DNA from: a virus
Lineage: Duplodnaviria; Heunggongvirae; Uroviricota; Caudoviricetes
Reading direction: 5' to 3' (one strand)
IMG/VR virus record: IMGVR_UViG_640753025_000001
Coordinates: 1 to 50,042 of that record
DNA length: 50,042 nt
In this document: positions 38,144 through 50,042 of the stretch, piece after piece
How positions within the stretch are numbered: position 1 is the first letter of the stretch
How the letters are laid out: each line of letters opens with the position of its first letter
Translations under genes and position numbers: made by a program
Notes under the pieces: model-generated
Seen by the model: the letters and a program-made list of their open reading frames with translations, nothing else
Database searches by the model: none
What the model was told of the DNA's origin: nothing

Positions 38144-38428
38144 GTGCCCATGAGCGGTAAGCGTTATCCCGAAGAGTTTAAAACTGAAGCAGTCAAACAG
38201 GTTGTTGATCGCGGTTATTCTGTTGCCAGCGTTGCAACACGTCTCGATATCACCACCCACAGCCTTTATGCCTGGATAAAGAAGTACGGTCCGGATTCTT
38301 CCACTAATAAAGAACAGTCAGATGCTCAGGCCGAGATCCGCCGTCTCCAGAAAGAGCTGAAACGGGTTACCGACGAACGGGACATATTAAAAAAAGCCGC
38401 GGCGTACTTCGCAAAGCTGTCCGACTGA
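38144..38428 (+). CDS. IS3-family transposase OrfA
   Basis: Identical protein to 6326..6610. Confidence 0.9.
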   Translation: MPMSGKRYPEEFKTEAVKQVVDRGYSVASVATRLDITTHSLYAWIKKYGPDSSTNKEQSDAQAEIRRLQKELKRVTDERDILKKAAAYFAKLSD

Positions 38429-38484
38429 GGTACGCCTTTATCCGTGACAACTCCTGTTGCTGGCCTGTTCGCCTGCTCTGTCGG

Positions 38485-39297
38485 GTGCTGGATGTTCATC
38501 CCAGTGGTTTTTACGCCTGGCTTCAGCAGCCGCATTCACAACGCCATCAGGCAGACCTGAGACTGACAGGACAGATTAAACAGTTCTGGCTGGAATCGGG
38601 ATGCGTCTATGGTTATCGCAAAATCCATCTGGATTTGCGTGACAGCGGGCAACAGTGCGGAGTAAACAGAGTCTGGAGACTGATGAAACGTGTCGGAATA
38701 AAGGCTCAGGTCGGATACCGAAGCCCGCGGGCACGTAAAGGCGAGGCCAGTATCGTGTCACCCAACAGGCTCCAGCGACAGTTCAATCCGGATGCTCCTG
38801 ATGAGCGTTGGGTAACGGACATAACCTACATCAGGACCCACGAAGGCTGGCTGTATCTTGCCGTTGTTGTTGATCTGTTCTCACGCAAAATTATCGGCTG
38901 GTCCATGCAATCCCGGATGACAAAGGACATTGTCCTGAACGCACTGCTGATGGCTGTATGGCGGCGTAATCCCGAAAAACAGGTGCTGGTTCATTCGGAT
39001 CAGGGCAGTCAGTACACAAGCCATGAGTGGCAGTCGTTCCTGAAATCACACGGCCTGGAGGGTAGCATGAGCCGTCGCGGTAACTGCCATGATAATGCGG
39101 TTGCAGAAAGTTTTTTCCAGTTGTTGAAACGTGAACGGATAAAGAAAAAGATCTACGGAACGCGGGAAGAAGCCCGCAGTGATATTTTTGATTACATCGA
39201 AATGTTTTATAACAGTAAGCGTCGGCATGGTTCTAGCGAACAGATGTCACCGACAGAATATGAAAACCAGTATTATCAACGGCTCGGAAGTGTCTAG
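38485..39297 (+). CDS. IS3-family transposase OrfB
   Basis: Identical protein to 6667..7479. Confidence 0.9.
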   Translation: MLDVHPSGFYAWLQQPHSQRHQADLRLTGQIKQFWLESGCVYGYRKIHLDLRDSGQQCGVNRVWRLMKRVGIKAQVGYRSPRARKGEASIVSPNRLQRQFNPDAPDERWVTDITYIRTHEGWLYLAVVVDLFSRKIIGWSMQSRMTKDIVLNALLMAVWRRNPEKQVLVHSDQGSQYTSHEWQSFLKSHGLEGSMSRRGNCHDNAVAESFFQLLKRERIKKKIYGTREEARSDIFDYIEMFYNSKRRHGSSEQMSPTEYENQYYQRLGSV

Positions 39298-42245: not shown

Positions 42246-42485
42246 ATGCACCGTCAGTCAGACATCTATCAGGCTTTCCGCGAGTCGGTATTGCGCAACT
42301 CCAAAGGCTACCAGTATCTGCATACAAAGGATTTTGTGTCAGCGCTGCTCCGGCGTGGGCTGCACTTTACCGACTCAGAGGCTAATGCGTGGATATCTAG
42401 AGAGCAGACGTACTTTGTCGACAAAACCACCGACCATAGCGAAAACCGTTTGTGGATGATGGCTAACATGGGGAGGGTTTTGTAA
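42246..42485 (+). CDS. hypothetical protein, first gene of LexA-box operon
   Basis: 79-aa ORF after AGAGGGAAG; stop overlaps next start (TAATG). Confidence 0.55.
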   Translation: MHRQSDIYQAFRESVLRNSKGYQYLHTKDFVSALLRRGLHFTDSEANAWISREQTYFVDKTTDHSENRLWMMANMGRVL

Positions 42486-42802
42486 TGGGCTTTCCTTCAC
42501 CCGCAGCGGACTACGTCGAGCAGCGACTGTCCGTTAACTCGATATGCAATGTTGGTCCTAACACCCGCGTTTTCGAAAGGGATGGCGGTTATGTTGTGCT
42601 GGATATCTCCCTGAAGCCAAAGCAGGGTAGTCAGGTTCTGATCCAGCACGGCGGCGGGACTGAGCTTGCCACGTTGAGAGGGAGGGCCCTGATTACTGAA
42701 GACGGCGAAGCGATTGAAGGCGAGGCCCTGGATGATATCACTGTCGCCGGCGTGGTGACACACACCATCATCGATGTGAGAAGTGACAGCGTAGCGGTAT
42801 AA
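42485..42802 (+). CDS. UmuD'-like protein (S24 fold, no Ser/Lys dyad, starts at the UmuD' N-terminus)
   Basis: 105 aa starting MGFPSPAADYVEQR, the segment just after the UmuD Cys-Gly cleavage site; GDSM Ser and catalytic Lys positions not conserved. Confidence 0.6.
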   Translation: MGFPSPAADYVEQRLSVNSICNVGPNTRVFERDGGYVVLDISLKPKQGSQVLIQHGGGTELATLRGRALITEDGEAIEGEALDDITVAGVVTHTIIDVRSDSVAV

Positions 42803-42833: not shown

Positions 42834-43064
42834 TTACTGTGTCTTTTCGTCCAGCCAGTCCGCCCACCACTGCATCATTTCTCTGCGTTTATCGAGATAC
42901 TGAGCATGGTTGTATATTCCACGCACAGATCCGCCGTTGGCATGAGCGAGTTGCACTTCGATAGTTTCGTGATGCACCAAGTGATCAAAGTAATGAAATT
43001 TAACATCCAAGCCTCCATCGATCGATACTTGCGGTAGTTGATAAGGAAAAACTATGGTACACAA
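42834..43064 (-). pseudogene. C-terminal fragment of a P4-type tyrosine integrase
   Basis: EVQLAHANGGSVRGIYNHAQYLDKRREMMQWWADWLD aligns with the C-terminus of the intact integrase at 43465..44673; no N-terminal/catalytic part. Confidence 0.6.
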
Positions 43065-43255: not shown

Positions 43256-43304
43256 ATTCGTAATGCGAAGGTCGTAGGTTCGACTCCTATTATCGGCACC
43301 ATTT
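43256..43304. repeat. attR core: 49-bp direct repeat (displaced 3' part of thrW)
   Basis: Exact copy of 1399..1447. Confidence 0.8.
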
Positions 43305-43464
43305 CAAACTCTTCCCAAGTCTACCGAAATCAACTAAAAGCTCGTATACTGCGGTTTCTGGCCCGTATCTTATCTCCTGTTATCAACTAGACTCAACCGA
43401 AATCAAGTCGCAGTTGGGGGCATAAGTGGGGGCATTTTGTGTTCGGTCTAGGGAGATGCCCCCA

Positions 43465-44673
43465 ATGAAACTTAATGCGCGACAGGTAGACGCAGCTAAA
43501 CCCAGAGAGAAAGCCTATAAGCTGGCAGATGGTGCTGGTTTGTATCTTGAGGTTGTTCCCTCTGGTTCCAGATACTGGCGGATGAAATATCGCTTCAATG
43601 GAAAAGAGAAGCGTATGGCCTTTGGTGTCTATCCGGCAGTGTCCCTTGCACAAGCGAGGGCACTGCGTGACGACGCCAAGAAAAAGCTTGCCGAAGGTAT
43701 CGATCCATCGCTTGCCAAGAAAGAAGAAAAGCTGGTTCGAGATGTGCAGCTAAATAATACGTTTCAGGCTGTGGCACTTGAATGGCATGGAACGAAGGTG
43801 AGCCGATGGTCAGAAGGTTATGCCTCGGACATTATCGAAGCCTTTAATAAAGATATTTTTCCCTATATTGGCCAACAACCGGTGAATGAAATCAAACCGC
43901 TGGTTCTGCTTAATGTGCTGCGTCGAATTGAAAGCCGTGGCGCGACAGAGAAGGCCAAGAAGGTTCGCCAGCGTTGCAGCGAAGTCTTTCGTTACGCCAT
44001 CGTAACCGGTCGTGCGGAATACAATCCTGCAGCGGATCTTACCAGCGCGATGTCAGGGCATGAATCGAAGCATTATCCCTTCCTTACTGTTGAGGAGTTA
44101 CCAGACTTTTTTAAAGCTCTCGCAGGCTACACAGGAAGCCCGTTAGTTGTTCTTGCGGCACGTCTGCTGATCCTCACGGGAGTTCGCACTGGCGAACTCC
44201 GAGGTGCTTTCTGGAGTGAGTTTGATCTTGAAAAAGCGGTGTGGGAGATACCTGCCGAGCGTATGAAGATGAAACGGCCTCACCTTGTCCCCCTCTCTAC
44301 CCAAGCGCTGGAAATCGTACAGCAACTCAAAGTGATGTCAGGGCAATATCCACTGGTGTTCCCGGGACGTAATGATCCCCGCAAGACGATGAGTGAAGCG
44401 AGTATTAATCAGGTTTTTAAGCGGATTGGATATACGGGGAGGGTAACGGGGCATGGTTTCCGTCACACGATGAGTACGATTTTGCATGAGGAAGGTTTCA
44501 ATACAGCGTGGATTGAAACCCAGCTGGCTCACGTTGATAAAAATGCGATTCGTGGGACGTATAACCATGCGTTGTATTTGGAAGGACGTAGGGAGATGAT
44601 GCAGTGGTATGCGGACTATATAAACGCTAATCATAATTCATGTATTTCTTTGCTGGTGAACGCTACAAAGTAG
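43465..44673 (+). CDS. int: tyrosine integrase, P4 type
   Basis: ATG at 43465 after GGGAGA; catalytic HGFRHT and RGTYNHALY regions; begins 160 bp after the tRNA 3' repeat, reading away from it. Confidence 0.9.
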   Translation: MKLNARQVDAAKPREKAYKLADGAGLYLEVVPSGSRYWRMKYRFNGKEKRMAFGVYPAVSLAQARALRDDAKKKLAEGIDPSLAKKEEKLVRDVQLNNTFQAVALEWHGTKVSRWSEGYASDIIEAFNKDIFPYIGQQPVNEIKPLVLLNVLRRIESRGATEKAKKVRQRCSEVFRYAIVTGRAEYNPAADLTSAMSGHESKHYPFLTVEELPDFFKALAGYTGSPLVVLAARLLILTGVRTGELRGAFWSEFDLEKAVWEIPAERMKMKRPHLVPLSTQALEIVQQLKVMSGQYPLVFPGRNDPRKTMSEASINQVFKRIGYTGRVTGHGFRHTMSTILHEEGFNTAWIETQLAHVDKNAIRGTYNHALYLEGRREMMQWYADYINANHNSCISLLVNATK

Positions 44674-44914
44674 ATTTGACGTGATGATAGGATTGATTAG
44701 GAAAATGACCTAAAACCGTATATTTTGATACTTAAGTTTAAACATTAGCCCTATATCCGATCGCCCTTTGTTACCTACACTTCTATCTTTTTTAGGTTCT
44801 AGGGCTGAAAGATTTGAAGATAAGTTTATAAATATCAATAGATTACATGATTGTGTTGGTTCTTGGGTAGCCGTAACGCCTAGGGCGGTAGCGTACTTAA
44901 GATGAGTATAAAAA

Positions 44915-46123
44915 ATGAACAGTAACTATATGCCATTCACACAACGAGATAGTCTCGGAAGATACTATACAAAAGAATCCATAAGTGCATTATTGGTTTC
45001 TCAGATGAAAGCTGAAAAAGTCAATAATATTATTGATTTAGCTTCTGGTGAGGGGAGCTTAACCTATGCTGCTTTAGACCGATGGAAGAATGCAGAAGCA
45101 TATTCTTTGGATATAGAATCTCGGATGTCAAAAAAAGTATGTGATAATCTTACTCATATTGTAACAGATGCCCTTGTTCATTCATTTCCTGAAATGCTTG
45201 CCCGACATCAAGGAAATTTTGATGTTGCAGTATGTAATCCTCCATTCACTCTCCCTGAATGGAGGGATGATTATTTTAAAATCATTAGTGAGATTGGCGC
45301 AGATAAATATATATCTGTCTCAAAATATGTCCCAGCAGAGATAATATTTATATCTCAAGTCATCAGGTTTCTTAAAAAGGGCGGTGAGGCTGGAATAATT
45401 TTACCTGATGGTATATTTACAGCAAGAAAGTTTATAGGTTTAAGACGATATTTATTGAATGAACATTCAATTACAAAAGTCATTGAATTGCCTAGGAATA
45501 TCTTCAAAAGGACAGAGGCTAAAACACATATTTTAATTTTTAATAAAAAAATTATGCCTCATCATAAAATACAATTACATTGTATAACTAAAGATGGGGA
45601 ATTGTCGCCTCCTGTTTTAATTAGAAAAGAAGATGCGGTTGAGAGAATGGACTACTCTTATCATTATAATAAAAATGAAGGTAAAGGGTTTAGCACAATA
45701 GGGATGCTTAAAAATATTTCAATTTTTAGAGGTAGGTTTAATTCAAAGGAAATTACGGAACATGTTTTTCATACGACAAAATTTAGTGGTGATGAAAAGT
45801 ACATTAAATTCCACTGCAACTCTGTAGAAGAATTGAAGCCATCAAAATTAGATGTCATTGCTAAGCCTGGTGATATATTAATAGCAAGAGTTGGGCGAAA
45901 TTTTCATAAAAAAATATTGTTTGTTGAGAGCGGCTATTCTTATATCAGTGACTGTATTTTTCTGATACGAGCCTCTGGTGGAGATAAGAAAAAACTATTT
46001 GATTTTCTTTGTTCTCAAGATGGGCAAGAGGAATTATCTCGAGCGAGTAGTGGTGTAGCCGCACAACATATTACAATGGATGCATTAAAAAAAATACATC
46101 TTGTAAGGATTAAACATGACTGA
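44915..46123 (+). CDS. N6-adenine DNA methyltransferase, gamma class
   Basis: 402 aa; GRYYTKESI (motif X-like), IIDLASGEGSLT (AdoMet motif I), CNPPF (motif IV, 45236..45247); ~160-aa C-terminal putative recognition domain; AT-rich. Confidence 0.8.
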   Translation: MNSNYMPFTQRDSLGRYYTKESISALLVSQMKAEKVNNIIDLASGEGSLTYAALDRWKNAEAYSLDIESRMSKKVCDNLTHIVTDALVHSFPEMLARHQGNFDVAVCNPPFTLPEWRDDYFKIISEIGADKYISVSKYVPAEIIFISQVIRFLKKGGEAGIILPDGIFTARKFIGLRRYLLNEHSITKVIELPRNIFKRTEAKTHILIFNKKIMPHHKIQLHCITKDGELSPPVLIRKEDAVERMDYSYHYNKNEGKGFSTIGMLKNISIFRGRFNSKEITEHVFHTTKFSGDEKYIKFHCNSVEELKPSKLDVIAKPGDILIARVGRNFHKKILFVESGYSYISDCIFLIRASGGDKKKLFDFLCSQDGQEELSRASSGVAAQHITMDALKKIHLVRIKHD

Positions 46124-47822
46124 TGTGGAATTAGATAGTAATTTTCTTATCGAGGAACGAGCTGATTATATTGATGAGGATACGATAAAAAATAATACTA
46201 TCAGATCTGGAGAGTTTTTCGATATTATACATAATGCTCTTATATCCCCAGGCATCAAACTTATAGTTGGTCCTAGGGGATGTGGTAAAACACATTTGAT
46301 GCGTTATGCTTGGGTTGAATGTAAAAACGATGATAACGCACCATTACCACTCTATGTTTCTTTTAATAAATATTTTAAGTTAGAGCCGCTTTTAAAAAAT
46401 AAACCAAATGCAATTGATCTCTTTCATAAATGGGTATTAGCAAAGATACTACTCTCTGCTTATGAAATTGCTTGCGATATTGAAGATTCTGAATATCTTG
46501 ATTTGTCAACGATACTCATAGCGGATAAAGAGTTCCTAATTAATTTAATCGTAAGGCTTGAGCAGGGTCTTTCGCCATCATTAGAACAAGAAAACATTGT
46601 TCAATTGATCAGTGTTTCTTCTGTCATATCCTCGTTGAGTTCACTATGTGATTGGCTTGAACGTAAAAGAGTCATTATTTTATTAGACGATGCAGCAATA
46701 AGCTTAACTCCTGAATATCTTTACGAGTTTTTTGATATTGTACGTAGTCTAAAAACCTCAAAAATAGCTTTAAAGGCATCGGTTTATCCTGGAACAACCG
46801 AATATGGCCCAAGGTTTCATGTTGCTCATGATGCTGAAACAATTGATGCTTGGATTTCGGTACAGCACCCTAATTATTCCTCAGTGATGGATGCTATAGC
46901 GCAGGCAAGGTTTCCTGGGTATGATGGCATTCCGGATGACTTGAAAGAGTTATTTAAATTCTCAGCATTTGGTATTCCACGTTCTTTTTTGATGATGTTA
47001 AGAGATTATCAAACAACTTTAAGTCAGACAACTCAGCAAAAATTTAATAAAATAATTGAAAGGTATGTTGAGCTTAGACTCAGCGAATACAGTTCACTAA
47101 AAGATAAGCTACCTCGATTGTTTGACATTGTTTCATTAGGTGAATCACTTTTATTAAAAGTAGTCGAATTACTCAAGGAAAGTAACTCCCAATATAAAGA
47201 AGAGAAACAAGTCATAATCGGTATAGAGAAAAATGATAATGTTTATTTTTCTCGACTCACTAAGCTATTAATTGAAACAGGGCTTTTTTATAATCTTCCT
47301 GATATTTCTCATGGTGATGGGCGTACTTATGAAAGATATATACCTCATTATGCTTTATTAATAAAGGAAAGAGTGTTTAACGAAGGAAGTAGAGGTTTTT
47401 CTCCTTCTCAGATTATTCAAAAAATACTAAGAAAGAATGCTAAGCATCCTGTCAGAAGAAACATTTCATCATTATTCAATGCTGAGCAACTTGCGAGACT
47501 TAAACTAACTTTACCTCCATGCAATAACTGCAAGACTCCGCGATTGACTGACAATCAAAAATTTTGCCATCATTGTGGGAATCAATTGATTGATGAGTCG
47601 GCCTATAATCAGTGCATGTCTATTCCACTGTCAAAAGTACCACATCTAACATCTTGGCAAATGCAAAAACTATCTGGGCTGGAAAAAGTAAAAACTATAG
47701 GAGATGTATTGTCTTTACAAGACCCTGGGAGTGAGTTAAGAAAAATTCACAGAATAGGACCCAAAATTGCCAATAAAATTATGGACAAAGTGTTATTACA
47801 TGTTGAAGAGTTTTTGTCTTAA
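46116..47822 (+). CDS. P-loop ATPase with C-terminal zinc ribbon and helix-hairpin-helix
   Basis: 568 aa; Walker A GPRGCGKTH (46269..46295), Walker B-like VIILLDDA, CNNCKTP...CHHCGNQL (from ~47519), HhH IHRIGPKIANKI; start overlaps MTase stop. Confidence 0.7.
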   Translation: MTDVELDSNFLIEERADYIDEDTIKNNTIRSGEFFDIIHNALISPGIKLIVGPRGCGKTHLMRYAWVECKNDDNAPLPLYVSFNKYFKLEPLLKNKPNAIDLFHKWVLAKILLSAYEIACDIEDSEYLDLSTILIADKEFLINLIVRLEQGLSPSLEQENIVQLISVSSVISSLSSLCDWLERKRVIILLDDAAISLTPEYLYEFFDIVRSLKTSKIALKASVYPGTTEYGPRFHVAHDAETIDAWISVQHPNYSSVMDAIAQARFPGYDGIPDDLKELFKFSAFGIPRSFLMMLRDYQTTLSQTTQQKFNKIIERYVELRLSEYSSLKDKLPRLFDIVSLGESLLLKVVELLKESNSQYKEEKQVIIGIEKNDNVYFSRLTKLLIETGLFYNLPDISHGDGRTYERYIPHYALLIKERVFNEGSRGFSPSQIIQKILRKNAKHPVRRNISSLFNAEQLARLKLTLPPCNNCKTPRLTDNQKFCHHCGNQLIDESAYNQCMSIPLSKVPHLTSWQMQKLSGLEKVKTIGDVLSLQDPGSELRKIHRIGPKIANKIMDKVLLHVEEFLS

Positions 47823-47892
47823 TTTTGATGGCATGTACTTGTCAATCGTGTCTTTCTTATCTGAAAAGTTTAATTTAAAAAGAGTCGGGAAA

Positions 47893-48870
47893 ATGGAACT
47901 AGAATCAAAAGAGGATTATGAAGAGACCACTCATCATAATGTGGCGTCCTCAGTTGTCACTGCAACCCATGATAACTTAGATGGAAGAGAGTTTTTTGAA
48001 CTATGTAGTAATCCAGCTCTAGTTTTTTCGTTTGAGACACACAAAAAATTTAATGAGTTACCTGTTGATAGCAAGGAATCCCCGTTAGATCTTTTTATAG
48101 CTAATACAAAGCAACTTCACTTGTTAAGATCTGGTGATATTTCAAACACATTAAGCCATCTGTTGTTATTAGGTTATGTGTCTGCAGCCGAAAGTTATTT
48201 GCGAGCTCTTATCAGAAATCTAATTAATCATGATGAATATATACAGTCTATAGTTTCTGATAAGGCCGTTAGTTATGCAGCGGCACAACACCATAAAAAG
48301 GAGTTATTACCAGAAGCTTTACTTGAGGACTTTTCATTGGCAAGCCCTTATAATGTTTTTGAAACATTAAAGGACATTATTGGAATGAAAGGACAACGAC
48401 CAATCGAAATGATGAAATGCTCAAGCGAATTCATGAAAGTTTGCGAGTTAAGGCATTGTTGTGTTCATCGATTTGGTAAGTTGGGTTCGAAAAATGCAAT
48501 CCGACTAGGATTGGCTGAACATATGAAGCACTTAGAAAAACCGATAATACTCAATAATGATGATCTCGAGCAAATCGCATTTATTGTTGAGAATTTTATT
48601 AGAACTTTGAATAATACCGTTTTCAAATTTATAATTAATCGTACAGTTGAGAACAAAAATAAGGAAAAAGGAGGGGAAAGACTATATGATTCTGAATGGA
48701 CATGGGTGTTTGAAAAAGATATAAGTCGATACGAAAAGTATTATTCAATATTTAGTGCCAAAAACGATACCCTTCCCGGATTATCATTACAGGATTCATA
48801 TCAACTTTTTGTTAATGCATATAAGCCTAAACTTCCTGCAAGAAAAAATAAAAAAACTGAAGAAAATTAA
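47893..48870 (+). CDS. hypothetical protein with Rx4H (HEPN-like) motif
   Basis: 325 aa from ATG 47893; RHCCVH at 48451..48468; AT-rich; alternative in-frame starts at 47767 and 47833. Confidence 0.5.
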   Translation: MELESKEDYEETTHHNVASSVVTATHDNLDGREFFELCSNPALVFSFETHKKFNELPVDSKESPLDLFIANTKQLHLLRSGDISNTLSHLLLLGYVSAAESYLRALIRNLINHDEYIQSIVSDKAVSYAAAQHHKKELLPEALLEDFSLASPYNVFETLKDIIGMKGQRPIEMMKCSSEFMKVCELRHCCVHRFGKLGSKNAIRLGLAEHMKHLEKPIILNNDDLEQIAFIVENFIRTLNNTVFKFIINRTVENKNKEKGGERLYDSEWTWVFEKDISRYEKYYSIFSAKNDTLPGLSLQDSYQLFVNAYKPKLPARKNKKTEEN

Positions 48871-49070
48871 CGCCACTACTATCTGAAAATATTAGTAATT
48901 TTTACTTGAAATGGCAGGGCGTTATTTTTTTTGATTGAATATGGGTAATGTTAAATATCTAATCATTTGAAACTTCTAGCTATATTAATAAATGTAATGT
49001 GTGAATGATGATGGTGCTTGCTTTAACTATAGATTGTTATTCCATATAGAAATTAGGTAATGACTCCAAC

Positions 49071-49574
49071 TTATTGATAGTGTTTTATGTTCAGATAATG
49101 CCCGATGACCTTGTCATGCAGCTCCACCGATTTTGAGAACGACAGTGACTTCCGTCCCAGCCTTGCCAGATGTTGTCTCAGATTCAGATTATGTCGCTCA
49201 ATGCGCTGAGTGTAACGCTTGCTGATAACGTGCAGCTTTCCCTTCAGGCGTGATTCATACAGCGGCCAGCCATCCGTCATCCATACCACGACCTCAAAGG
49301 CCGACAGCAGGCTCAGAAGACGCTCCAGTGTGGCCAGAGTGCGTTCACCGAAGACGTGCGCCACAACCGTCCTCCGTATCCTGTCATACGCGTAAAACAG
49401 CCAGCGCTGACGTGATTTAGCACCGACGTAGCCCCACTGTTCGTCCATTTCAGCGCAGACAATCACATCACTGCCCGGTTGTATGCGCGAGGTTACCGAC
49501 TGCGGCCTGAGTTTTTTAAGTGACGTAAAACCGTGTTGAGGCCAACGCCCATAATGCGTGCACTGGCGCGACAT
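49071..49574 (-). CDS. insB: IS1 InsB (expressed as InsAB' by frameshift)
   Basis: 167-aa ORF recognised as IS1 InsB. Confidence 0.9.
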
Positions 49575-49768: not shown

Positions 49769-49823
49769 GCAAGCACCTTAAAATCACCATCATACACTAA
49801 ATCAGTAAGTTGGCAGCATTACC

Positions 49824-50042
49824 CAAAATCAACAAGCTCAGTTTCATCCAGCTCAACAAATTCAAGTATTTTTTCTTTCGCATTTTTTCTTTCGCATCGG
49901 CATCGCGGTTTTGTTTTTTCAAATACGTCTGAAAATACTCACATGCTTTCGCAAAACTCATTGTGTAAATCATTGCCGCATATCGTAGTGCCTGTAACTC
50001 CATATGCGTCCCCGTTTCATCACGTTTTAATTCGATAACCAC
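49824..50042 (-). pseudogene. partial ORF running into IS1, unknown function
   Basis: Minus-strand frame enters from beyond the window edge and continues across the IS1 end at 49823. Confidence 0.3.

Follow-up and report, generated by a model that had tools for sequence, protein, structure and literature searches.

A methylase, ATPase and HEPN-like gene trio in the thrW island of Escherichia coli HS, a candidate defence cassette

In the Hma or Type-1 bacteriophage exclusion (BREX)-related (BR) systems, a helicase-nuclease (HmaA) and an N6-adenine methyltransferase (MTase; HmaB) accompany a DUF499 ATPase (HmaC), often with an N-terminal HEPN domain, and combinations of an MTase, an ORC/STAND ATPase and HEPN have already been described for them (PMC12839542). 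The idea of HEPN domains acting in restriction-modification (R-M) contexts dates from 2013 (PMC3710099). BREX type 1 is built of BrxA, BrxB, BrxC, PglX, PglZ and BrxL; the methylation-associated defence system (MADS) is given as mad1-mad8 by Maestri et al. 2024, as cited in PMC12065111. Here we analyze a three-gene locus, hereafter the trio (g1, g2 and g3), within 50,042 nucleotides of the IMG/VR virus record IMGVR_UViG_640753025_000001 (positions 1 to 50,042, hereafter the window); the locus is 100% identical to E. coli HS (NC_009800.1; position in that record = window position + 290372). Its sequence and distribution point to a genuine, complete and widespread methylase-ATPase-HEPN cassette in a defence island of a model commensal, for which we infer a role in defence. 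The genes and motifs concerned, in window coordinates, are:

44915..46123, + strand: g1, predicted HsdM-like gamma-class N6-adenine DNA methyltransferase (WP_001375306.1, 402 amino acids), with a catalytic domain at about residues 1-230 and a fused HsdS-like target recognition domain (TRD) at about residues 258-400
45236..45247, + strand: motif IV of g1, NPPF (N108-F111), the catalytic motif of N6-adenine methyltransferases, from the translation
46116..46123, + strand: 8-nt overlap ATGACTGA of the g2 start (ATG 46116) and the g1 stop (TGA 46121-46123), read directly
46116..47822, + strand: g2, predicted ORC/Cdc6-STAND-type AAA+ ATPase (WP_000132879.1, 568 amino acids), with core and lid at about residues 30-300, a helical region at 306-360, a winged helix at about 365-420, a C4 zinc ribbon at 467-490 and a helix-hairpin-helix (HhH) tail at 496-567
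46269..46292, + strand: Walker A of g2, GPRGCGKT (G52-T59), with G52, P53, R54, G55, G57, K58 and T59 invariant in 39 homologues
46686..46691, + strand: Walker B of g2, DD (D191-D192), invariant in the 39 homologues
47520..47576, + strand: zinc ribbon CxxC...CxxC of g2 (C469, C472, C484, C487), invariant in the 39 homologues; Pfam Zn_ribbon_3 and DZR match residues 469-492
47893..48870, + strand: g3, HEPN-like all-helical protein, 325 amino acids from ATG 47893; the Prokaryotic Genome Annotation Pipeline (PGAP) gives 356 amino acids from ATG 47800 (WP_000920175.1)
48451..48468, + strand: Rx4H motif of g3, RHCCVH (R187-H192 in the 325-residue form), putative HEPN catalytic motif, from the homologue alignment

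Judged by its predicted proteins, the trio resembles Hma/Type-1 BR, BREX-1, MADS and PrrC/EcoprrI in its working and is a member of none, each comparison failing on at least one defining feature. With Hma it shares an N6-adenine MTase, an ORC/Cdc6-STAND-type AAA+ ATPase with winged-helix modules and an HEPN endoribonuclease (putative in the trio), and the R-M-like logic of modifying self, sensing and restricting would apply to both. Additionally, 10 of 39 g2 relatives weakly match the PADLOC model of the Hma-embedded candidate HEC-02A. The DUF499 ATPase and SWI2/SNF2 helicase-nuclease that define Hma are absent, however: the trio has neither a helicase-nuclease nor any DNase, no helicase recurs in its flanks, and its ATPase is 568 rather than over 1000 residues long, does not match DUF499 and ends in a zinc ribbon and HhH. 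Its putative HEPN is a separate, RiboL-PSP-like protein and the sole candidate effector, and its MTase is a small fusion of HsdM and TRD.

The distance from BREX type 1 is wider in gene content, with three genes against six and with PglZ, BrxA, BrxB and BrxL all missing from the trio, whose effector would be the HEPN protein. Of the remaining marks of that type, PglX and a BrxC of about 1200 residues, neither is found: g1 scores 30.7 bits against a PglX model with a cut-off of 500, and the likeness of g2 to BrxC is confined to the N-terminal ATPase fold. The likeness to MADS lies in g1, which matches mad2 (PADLOC, 1.9e-20), MAD2 (NCBIfam, 3.6e-16) and the MAD5 S-subunit (6.9e-5), and in 13 of the 39 g2 relatives, which match mad8 weakly (best 1.2e-6; E=0.004 for g2 of the window). 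None of these matches reaches equivalog level, g1 scoring 58.6 bits against a MAD2 cut-off of 720 and well under the 400-bit cut-off of MAD5, and the trio, with three genes against eight, contains none of the other mad components.

PrrC-EcoprrI and RloC offer the parallel of an NTPase-regulated HEPN ribonuclease tied genetically to DNA modification, and distant relatives of the g2-g3 pair lie beside type I hsdR. In PrrC and RloC, however, an ABC-type NTPase is fused N-terminally to the HEPN nuclease, whereas the trio would have a STAND/ORC-type ATPase and an HEPN protein as separate chains, which are mostly partnered by an MTase on its own instead of a full type I enzyme. The N6_Mtase fold, motif I, NPPF and a TRD of HsdS type are what g1 has in common with fused-TRD gamma-class MTases of type II and with type I HsdM, but the trio has an AAA+ ATPase and an HEPN protein as partners in place of a cognate restriction endonuclease, HsdR or separate HsdS. 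Classical type I R-M would require an HsdR translocase-nuclease and a separate HsdS subunit, but the cassette shows neither a helicase or ResIII domain nor a standalone S gene; the endonuclease (PD-(D/E)XK, HNH, GIY-YIG or PLD) that adjoins the MTase in classical type II is lacking as well. An earlier note on this DNA, made from the letters alone, had seen no helicase, HsdS/HsdR or canonical restriction endonuclease here. That holds for helicase, HsdR and endonuclease, but not for HsdS, since g1 carries an HsdS-like TRD of its own, the part that matches MAD5.

The same note had proposed an undescribed system, and we compared the trio with PADLOC v2.0.0 (2023), NCBIfam release 20 (June 2026), Pfam, PHROGs and PDB sequences. 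PADLOC, run on the three proteins, returned no named system, and no PADLOC model of g2 or g3 rises above noise even in scans of family alignments (weak mad8, HEC-02A and RTasHEPN matches only). NCBIfam has no equivalog for g1, g2 or g3, and full-text literature searches, which covered few subscription journals, found no description of the trio. The trio matched no named system in PADLOC, NCBIfam, Pfam, PHROGs, PDB sequences or this literature, but the concept is less novel, having been described for Hma/Type-1 BR and, as HEPN in R-M, in 2013.

We consider it unlikely that the trio has already been characterized and named, be it in REBASE, in more recent releases of DefenseFinder or PADLOC, or in a subscription journal. 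The PADLOC release is that of 2023, and g1 matches the REBASE-derived PADLOC MTase_II model PDLC03285 end to end (8e-237), so that at least this enzyme is already catalogued, as a type II-style methylase. Against a prior name stand the lack of any NCBIfam equivalog as late as June 2026, the empty literature searches, the failure of g2 and g3 profiles to find a PDB sequence relative, and a 2026 preprint on strain HS according to which BREX alone among its immune systems has been studied. Moreover, the labels in PGAP and UniRef are generic or spurious: 'HsdM family class I SAM-dependent methyltransferase' for g1, 'zinc ribbon domain-containing protein' or 'ORC-CDC6 family AAA ATPase' for g2, and 'hypothetical protein' or, spuriously, 'phage head-tail connector' for g3.

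Conservation and linkage of the trio

A g2 profile search of the GTDB genome collection yielded 80 loci, each from a different species (Proteobacteria, Bacteroidota, Myxococcota, a metagenome-assembled genome (MAG) of Bacillota, and others), in each of which open reading frames (ORFs) were called and searched with g1, g2 and g3. The trio is intact in 68 of the 80, in three gene orders and among unrelated flanks:

Intact, g1-g2-g3: 48 loci
Intact, g2-g3-g1: 11 loci, mainly Bacteroidota and deltaproteobacterial MAGs
Intact, g1 divergently oriented from g2-g3: 9 loci
g2 and/or g3 fragmented, g1-type MTase ORF kept: 5 loci
No g3 match: 3 loci, all truncated or fragmented (L067, contig-end truncation; L078, fragmented g2; and L077)
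g2-g3 without g1: 4 loci, one of them (L070) cut by the contig end

A g3 homologue directly follows g2 in 77 of the 80 loci, mostly overlapping or abutting it in the other species, and a g1 homologue is adjacent in 74; this linkage is far beyond chance. Pairwise identities are correlated for all three combinations (g2/g3 r=0.88, g1/g2 r=0.61, g1/g3 r=0.66), and the retention of the three genes together despite rearrangement argues that they are functionally linked. The possibility of three unrelated genes was rejected on the adjacency across loci and the co-varying identities.

When all flanking ORFs within 4 kb of the 80 loci were clustered, no fourth gene recurred. Most often the neighbours belong to a different three-gene cassette (9 loci) or are tyrosine integrases or serine recombinases, and separate look-ups in Pseudomonas, Lysobacter and Stenotrophomonas gave the same trio with unrelated neighbours. 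In HS, where the island integrated at thrW carries the trio as its first cargo (in the order integrase, trio, IS1, pseudogene, well-studied BREX-1 cluster), the earlier note had suspected that the insertion sequence had cut away further components. Because the trio is self-contained in 68 species, with unrelated flanks and no conserved fourth gene, such a loss is not supported; the HS cassette is complete, and IS1 is unlikely to have removed any part of it. The trio is thus a self-contained, horizontally mobile module that is inherited together across phyla.

The different cassette lies directly upstream of the trio in eight of the nine loci and directly downstream in one, and is present also in Pseudomonas viridiflava (L003, 9099-12949); a further example is L021 (2996-6806). 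It encodes PRTase-CE (PF24390, 2e-44), a 669-residue ORC-CDC6-like ATPase (matching PF24389 from end to end, 5.8e-108) and a protein of about 307 residues with no Pfam match, and looks like a paralogous, ATPase-centred candidate defence system.

The position of the trio in HS, in one island with brxA and about 2 kb upstream of it, and the resemblance of g2 to the ATPase domain of BrxC could make it an accessory of the adjacent BREX-1. We regard this as extremely improbable. In 80 other species the trio occurs among unrelated flanks in which no gene recurs, and in HS itself IS1 and a pseudogene lie between it and BREX-1. Among E. coli genomes, brxAB is present in 399 and the trio in 148, with only 131 brxAB copies at least 99% identical; these counts show the trio to be separable, and we rejected it as a part of BREX on that ground.

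In E. coli the trio is chromosomal, found in 148 of 5426 complete genomes, and all 148 copies are at least 99% identical. The exact trio proteins are also on record from Klebsiella pneumoniae; a search for g2 gave none in the phage collection and only 5 large plasmids. Elsewhere the cassette is decaying: L069, L074, L076 and L086 keep g1 as a single ORF beside a broken g2 and/or g3, and in L073 g1 is shortened too. This outlasting of g1 may be likened to the orphan methylases left by degenerating R-M systems.

A selfish role could be read from the same distribution, in which the trio stabilizes its island by killing segregants once methylation is diluted, and any anti-phage effect is incidental or absent. 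The integrases or recombinases that adjoin many loci, the orphan-MTase decay products and the near-identity of the E. coli copies, consistent with recent horizontal spread, are all in keeping with such addiction. The company that the trio keeps is of another kind, namely a defence-island setting, with BREX-1 in E. coli and the PRTase-CE/ORC-CDC6-like cassette in 9 of the 80 loci, and addiction is compatible with defence and does not exclude it. As the explanation of the trio, we hold it to be very unlikely.

The three predicted proteins

The earlier note had read g1 as a gamma-class m6A MTase, g2 as a P-loop ATPase with zinc ribbon and HhH whose start overlaps the g1 stop, and g3 as the bearer of an Rx4H motif, 70 bp further on. 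The evidence below agrees with each of these readings, save that the 70-bp gap depends on where g3 begins.

In g1, residues 11-228 match the Pfam families N6_Mtase (E=1.7e-22; 80.6 bits, cut-off 20.4) and Eco57I (6e-11). Motif I (DLASGEGSL) precedes NPPF, of which N108, P109 and P110 show 99% conservation each among 74 homologues. With the TRD placed C-terminally, this is the gamma-class order of motif I followed by a (D/N)PP(Y/F) motif IV. The TRD is recognized from the HsdS-type MAD5 match over residues 258-400 and from GDIL..R scaffold residues, which are typical of TRDs, in the C-terminal 150 residues of the homologue alignment. The closest solved relatives are type I HsdM subunits, EcoR124 HsdM giving the best PDB sequence match (5.7e-8). 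We therefore predict that g1 is an adenine methylase that joins HsdM and TRD in a single chain.

The 8-nt overlap between g1 and g2 suggests translational coupling. Beyond the invariant Walker motifs and cysteines listed above, a GIPR motif is likewise invariant in the 39 g2 homologues, and the AlphaFold2 (AF2) model of g2 has a mean confidence (pLDDT) of 86.4. The Walker A and B motifs, helical lid and winged helix, and fold similarity to Cdc6/Orc1, NB-ARC or PF01637 ATPases, place g2 among ORC/Cdc6-STAND AAA+ proteins. The Pfam family PF24389, 'ORC-CDC6-like', covers only residues 40-122 of g2 but the full length of the 669-residue family, which indicates that g2 is a distinct family in that class; against PDB sequences its profile found P-loop noise only. 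Three putative nucleic-acid-binding modules follow the ATPase: the winged helix (residues ~365-420; match to a PHROG of transcriptional regulators, 1.2e-5), the zinc ribbon, and the HhH, which is assigned from a weak Pfam HHH_8 match (E=0.054) and the helical tail of the AF2 model. A variable insert at residues 125-175 correlates slightly better with g1 (r about 0.62 vs 0.50-0.55), which is not decisive on whether it co-varies with the g1 TRD.

The g3 frame can open at 47767, 47800 or 47893. The PGAP start at 47800 makes g3 overlap g2 by 23 nt, and the 70-bp gap holds only from ATG 47893. We favour the latter as the probable start because the extra N-terminal residues are unconserved beyond close relatives, distant homologues align from the methionine at 47893, and GGGA lies just upstream.

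Within g3, 38 homologues show no variation at R187, H188, C189, C190, H192 and R193, and of the whole protein only E100, R187, H192 and N240 are still invariant in 32 more divergent members, as expected if the Rx4H is catalytic. RHCCVH conforms to the Rx4-6H motif of HEPN proteins, and the AF2 model is all-helical (pLDDT 84.2). It is a compact family: 418 of 1.84 billion cluster representatives belong to it. It has no Pfam model, and no Pfam HEPN family is matched by the 38 close members. Seven of 31 divergent members match HEPN_RiboL-PSP just under threshold (best 1.7e-5), one each gives a sub-threshold match to HEPN_Apea and HEPN_Cthe2314, and RTasHEPN of PADLOC matches g3 weakly. The g3 profile found nothing among PDB sequences even at E<=10, and Foldseek found nothing significant for the model in the PDB, its best match (E=1.2) being an HEPN toxin. 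Taken together, these features make it likely that g3 belongs to the HEPN superfamily. Some GenBank and UniRef entries for 47800-48870 carry the name 'phage head-tail connector protein' and others 'hypothetical'. The former is unsupported, since g3 has no PHROGs match; nor is it similar to connector proteins, and the name appears to be a propagated error.

A possible mechanism and its alternatives

We put forward a model, to which we give about an even chance, in which the trio is an R-M-like immune system with an RNase instead of a DNase as its effector: g1 would mark, g2 sense and g3 cleave RNA. The methylase would modify a specific sequence in host DNA and so mark self. Like BrxC and other ORC/STAND ATPases, g2 would bind DNA, through its winged helix, zinc ribbon and HhH, and target DNA that is unmethylated would cause its ATP-dependent assembly. 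That assembly might then license g3 to cleave tRNA, rRNA or mRNA, arresting the infected cell. Each half of the scheme has been put forward elsewhere, ATP-dependent assembly on unmodified targets for BrxC and DUF499 ATPases (PMC12839542) and RNA cleavage that stops the infected cell for R-M-linked HEPN domains (PMC3710099); both papers discuss effector HEPN RNases in settings of R-M and of BREX-related systems. The survival of an MTase ORF beside a fragmented g2 or g3 fits the model. We also count as links to methylation-based defence the matches of g1 to MAD2/mad2, those of g2 relatives to mad8 and HEC-02A, a pair linked to HsdR and the metagenomic protein P0038.

P0038 (522 residues) fuses an N6_Mtase catalytic domain (residues 8-218) to a g3 HEPN-like domain (residues 245-520) and lacks both TRD and ATPase. 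It represents either a Rosetta-stone fusion or a trio that has undergone deletion.

A broader proposal, which we advance tentatively and with some doubt, is that the trio represents a widespread, minimal form of innate immunity in which the m6A state is read by an ORC/STAND-like ATPase and relayed to RNA cleavage by a separate HEPN protein. It would be abortive and free of DNases, and its ATPase-HEPN pair would be portable, docking also onto type I R-M.

Several observations weigh against the R-M-like model. Intact g2-g3 pairs stand without an adjacent g1-type methylase in L025 (1123-3842), L040 (1268-3873) and L042 (6968-9516), the last, from Flavobacterium, flanked by the housekeeping genes thrB and thrC. 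In a divergent subfamily, g3 is 460-500 residues long with an uncharacterized C-terminal extension of ~230 residues, always follows a g2-like zinc-ribbon ATPase, and is not accompanied by g1. Such pairs imply that g2-g3 is not obligatorily gated by g1 and not lethal without g1 nearby. Nor does the TRD of g1 show hypervariability, its mean pairwise identity being 0.32 vs 0.34 for the catalytic domain; in this it appears unlike the typical, diversifying specificity domains of R-M. Two further results are entered on this side, each of them uninformative: the text of a PacBio study of E. coli HS names GGTAAG alone, as BREX-specific, and no motif attributable to g1 (PMC6326788), and a scan of 44500-49100, in AT-rich DNA, gave 18 promoter-like sites vs 21.6 expected, with nothing downstream of g3 that convincingly resembles a terminator.

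Pairs without an MTase, together with the lack of TRD hypervariability, weaken the R-M-like model and keep alive a guard of the PrrC kind. Here a latent g2-g3 would be silenced by contact with the MTase, or elsewhere with a type I R-M enzyme, and would fire if a phage disabled that partner by means of an anti-restriction protein or DNA mimic, so that methylation is not the signal that g2 reads. We examined four contexts of the long-g3 subfamily, including L089 (1-5897), L092 (175-7129) and L090 (5904-9087). Two of the four are next to type I HsdR, the L089 pair directly downstream of it and the L092 pair convergent with it, both without g1, and a third long-g3 pair stands alone. PrrC/EcoprrI is a precedent, and the analogy has been drawn explicitly for R-M-linked HEPN domains (PMC3710099). 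However, 73 of the 80 main-family loci have a dedicated g1-type MTase and no restriction endonuclease, and thus no classical restriction activity to back up; three modules of DNA-binding type in g2 suit direct sensing of DNA; and g2 is of the STAND/ORC type, whereas the PrrC ATPase is of the ABC type. On balance the guard is unlikely. The pair of ATPase and putative HEPN protein is, from the gene contexts, a module that is usually, but not always, partnered with a DNA-modification enzyme. The HsdR that is convergent with a long-g3 pair has a weak match to DUF4145, a HEPN family.

If the R-M-like model is true, the trio would be the simplest known link from self-recognition by DNA methylation to an RNase effector, with three small genes in place of the six to eight of BREX and MADS. 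It would also offer a tractable system for the long-standing question of how modification status is read, and the signal relayed, by BrxC and other ORC/STAND-type ATPases. E. coli HS, a model commensal of the gut, withstands more than 100 BASEL coliphages, and BREX is the only one of its immune systems to have been studied (2026 HS preprint), so the trio may account for part of the unexplained resistance. For annotation, the gain is a better description of g3, now labelled 'hypothetical' or, wrongly, 'phage head-tail connector'.

The thrW island and its neighbourhood

The trio directly follows an intact P4-type integrase, in the cargo slot of the island, as the earlier note had it; the ORF calls and three Pfam integrase domains agree on this. 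Its low GC content, 0.29-0.38 over 44500-48999 against 0.44-0.55 in the integrase and prophage and 0.50-0.55 in IS1, likewise bears out the description of the trio as far more AT-rich than its flanks. The features of the integration site are:

1369-1444: intact tRNA-Thr (thrW), from the annotation; the part matching the att copy is at 1399-1447
43257..43304, + strand: copy of the tRNA-Thr 3' part, the attL of the island and also the attR of the prophage, read directly from the sequence
43465..44673, + strand: tyrosine (P4-type) integrase of the thrW island, intact (PGAP start; ORF 43426-44673), with Pfam Arm-DNA-bind_3 (3.8e-29), Phage_int_M (4.8e-34) and Phage_integrase (7.3e-23)

The last ~48 bases of the tRNA-Thr region are present twice, at 1399-1447 and 43257-43304. 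In HS a P22-like prophage (about 1448-43256) sits between the tRNA and the island and created the duplicated tRNA end; in strain JNE170426 the tRNA immediately precedes the island integrase. Two elements are thus in tandem at thrW, and the P22-like prophage is phiHS4 of the 2026 HS preprint. On the far side of the trio, IS1 extends from 49056 to about 49823, its left end 185 bp after the g3 stop, and the same IS1 is present in JNE170426. Past it, immediately upstream of brxA, which itself lies outside the window, is a frameshifted or truncated gene (49797-50042, - strand; 981 bp in JNE170426).

Within the prophage, an IS3-family element (38150-39297) splits a gene just upstream of an Arc-family repressor and the tailspike in the PGAP annotation. 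Between the tailspike region and the att copy, PGAP marks a 135-bp integrase remnant without its N-terminus (42834-42968, - strand), presumably what is left of the integrase of either the P22-like prophage itself or a previous occupant. At the prophage end, a 79-residue ORF (42246-42485) overlaps by one base the next ORF (42485-42802, + strand, 105 residues), which begins MGFPSPAADY and by eye looks UmuD/S24-peptidase-like at its N-terminus.

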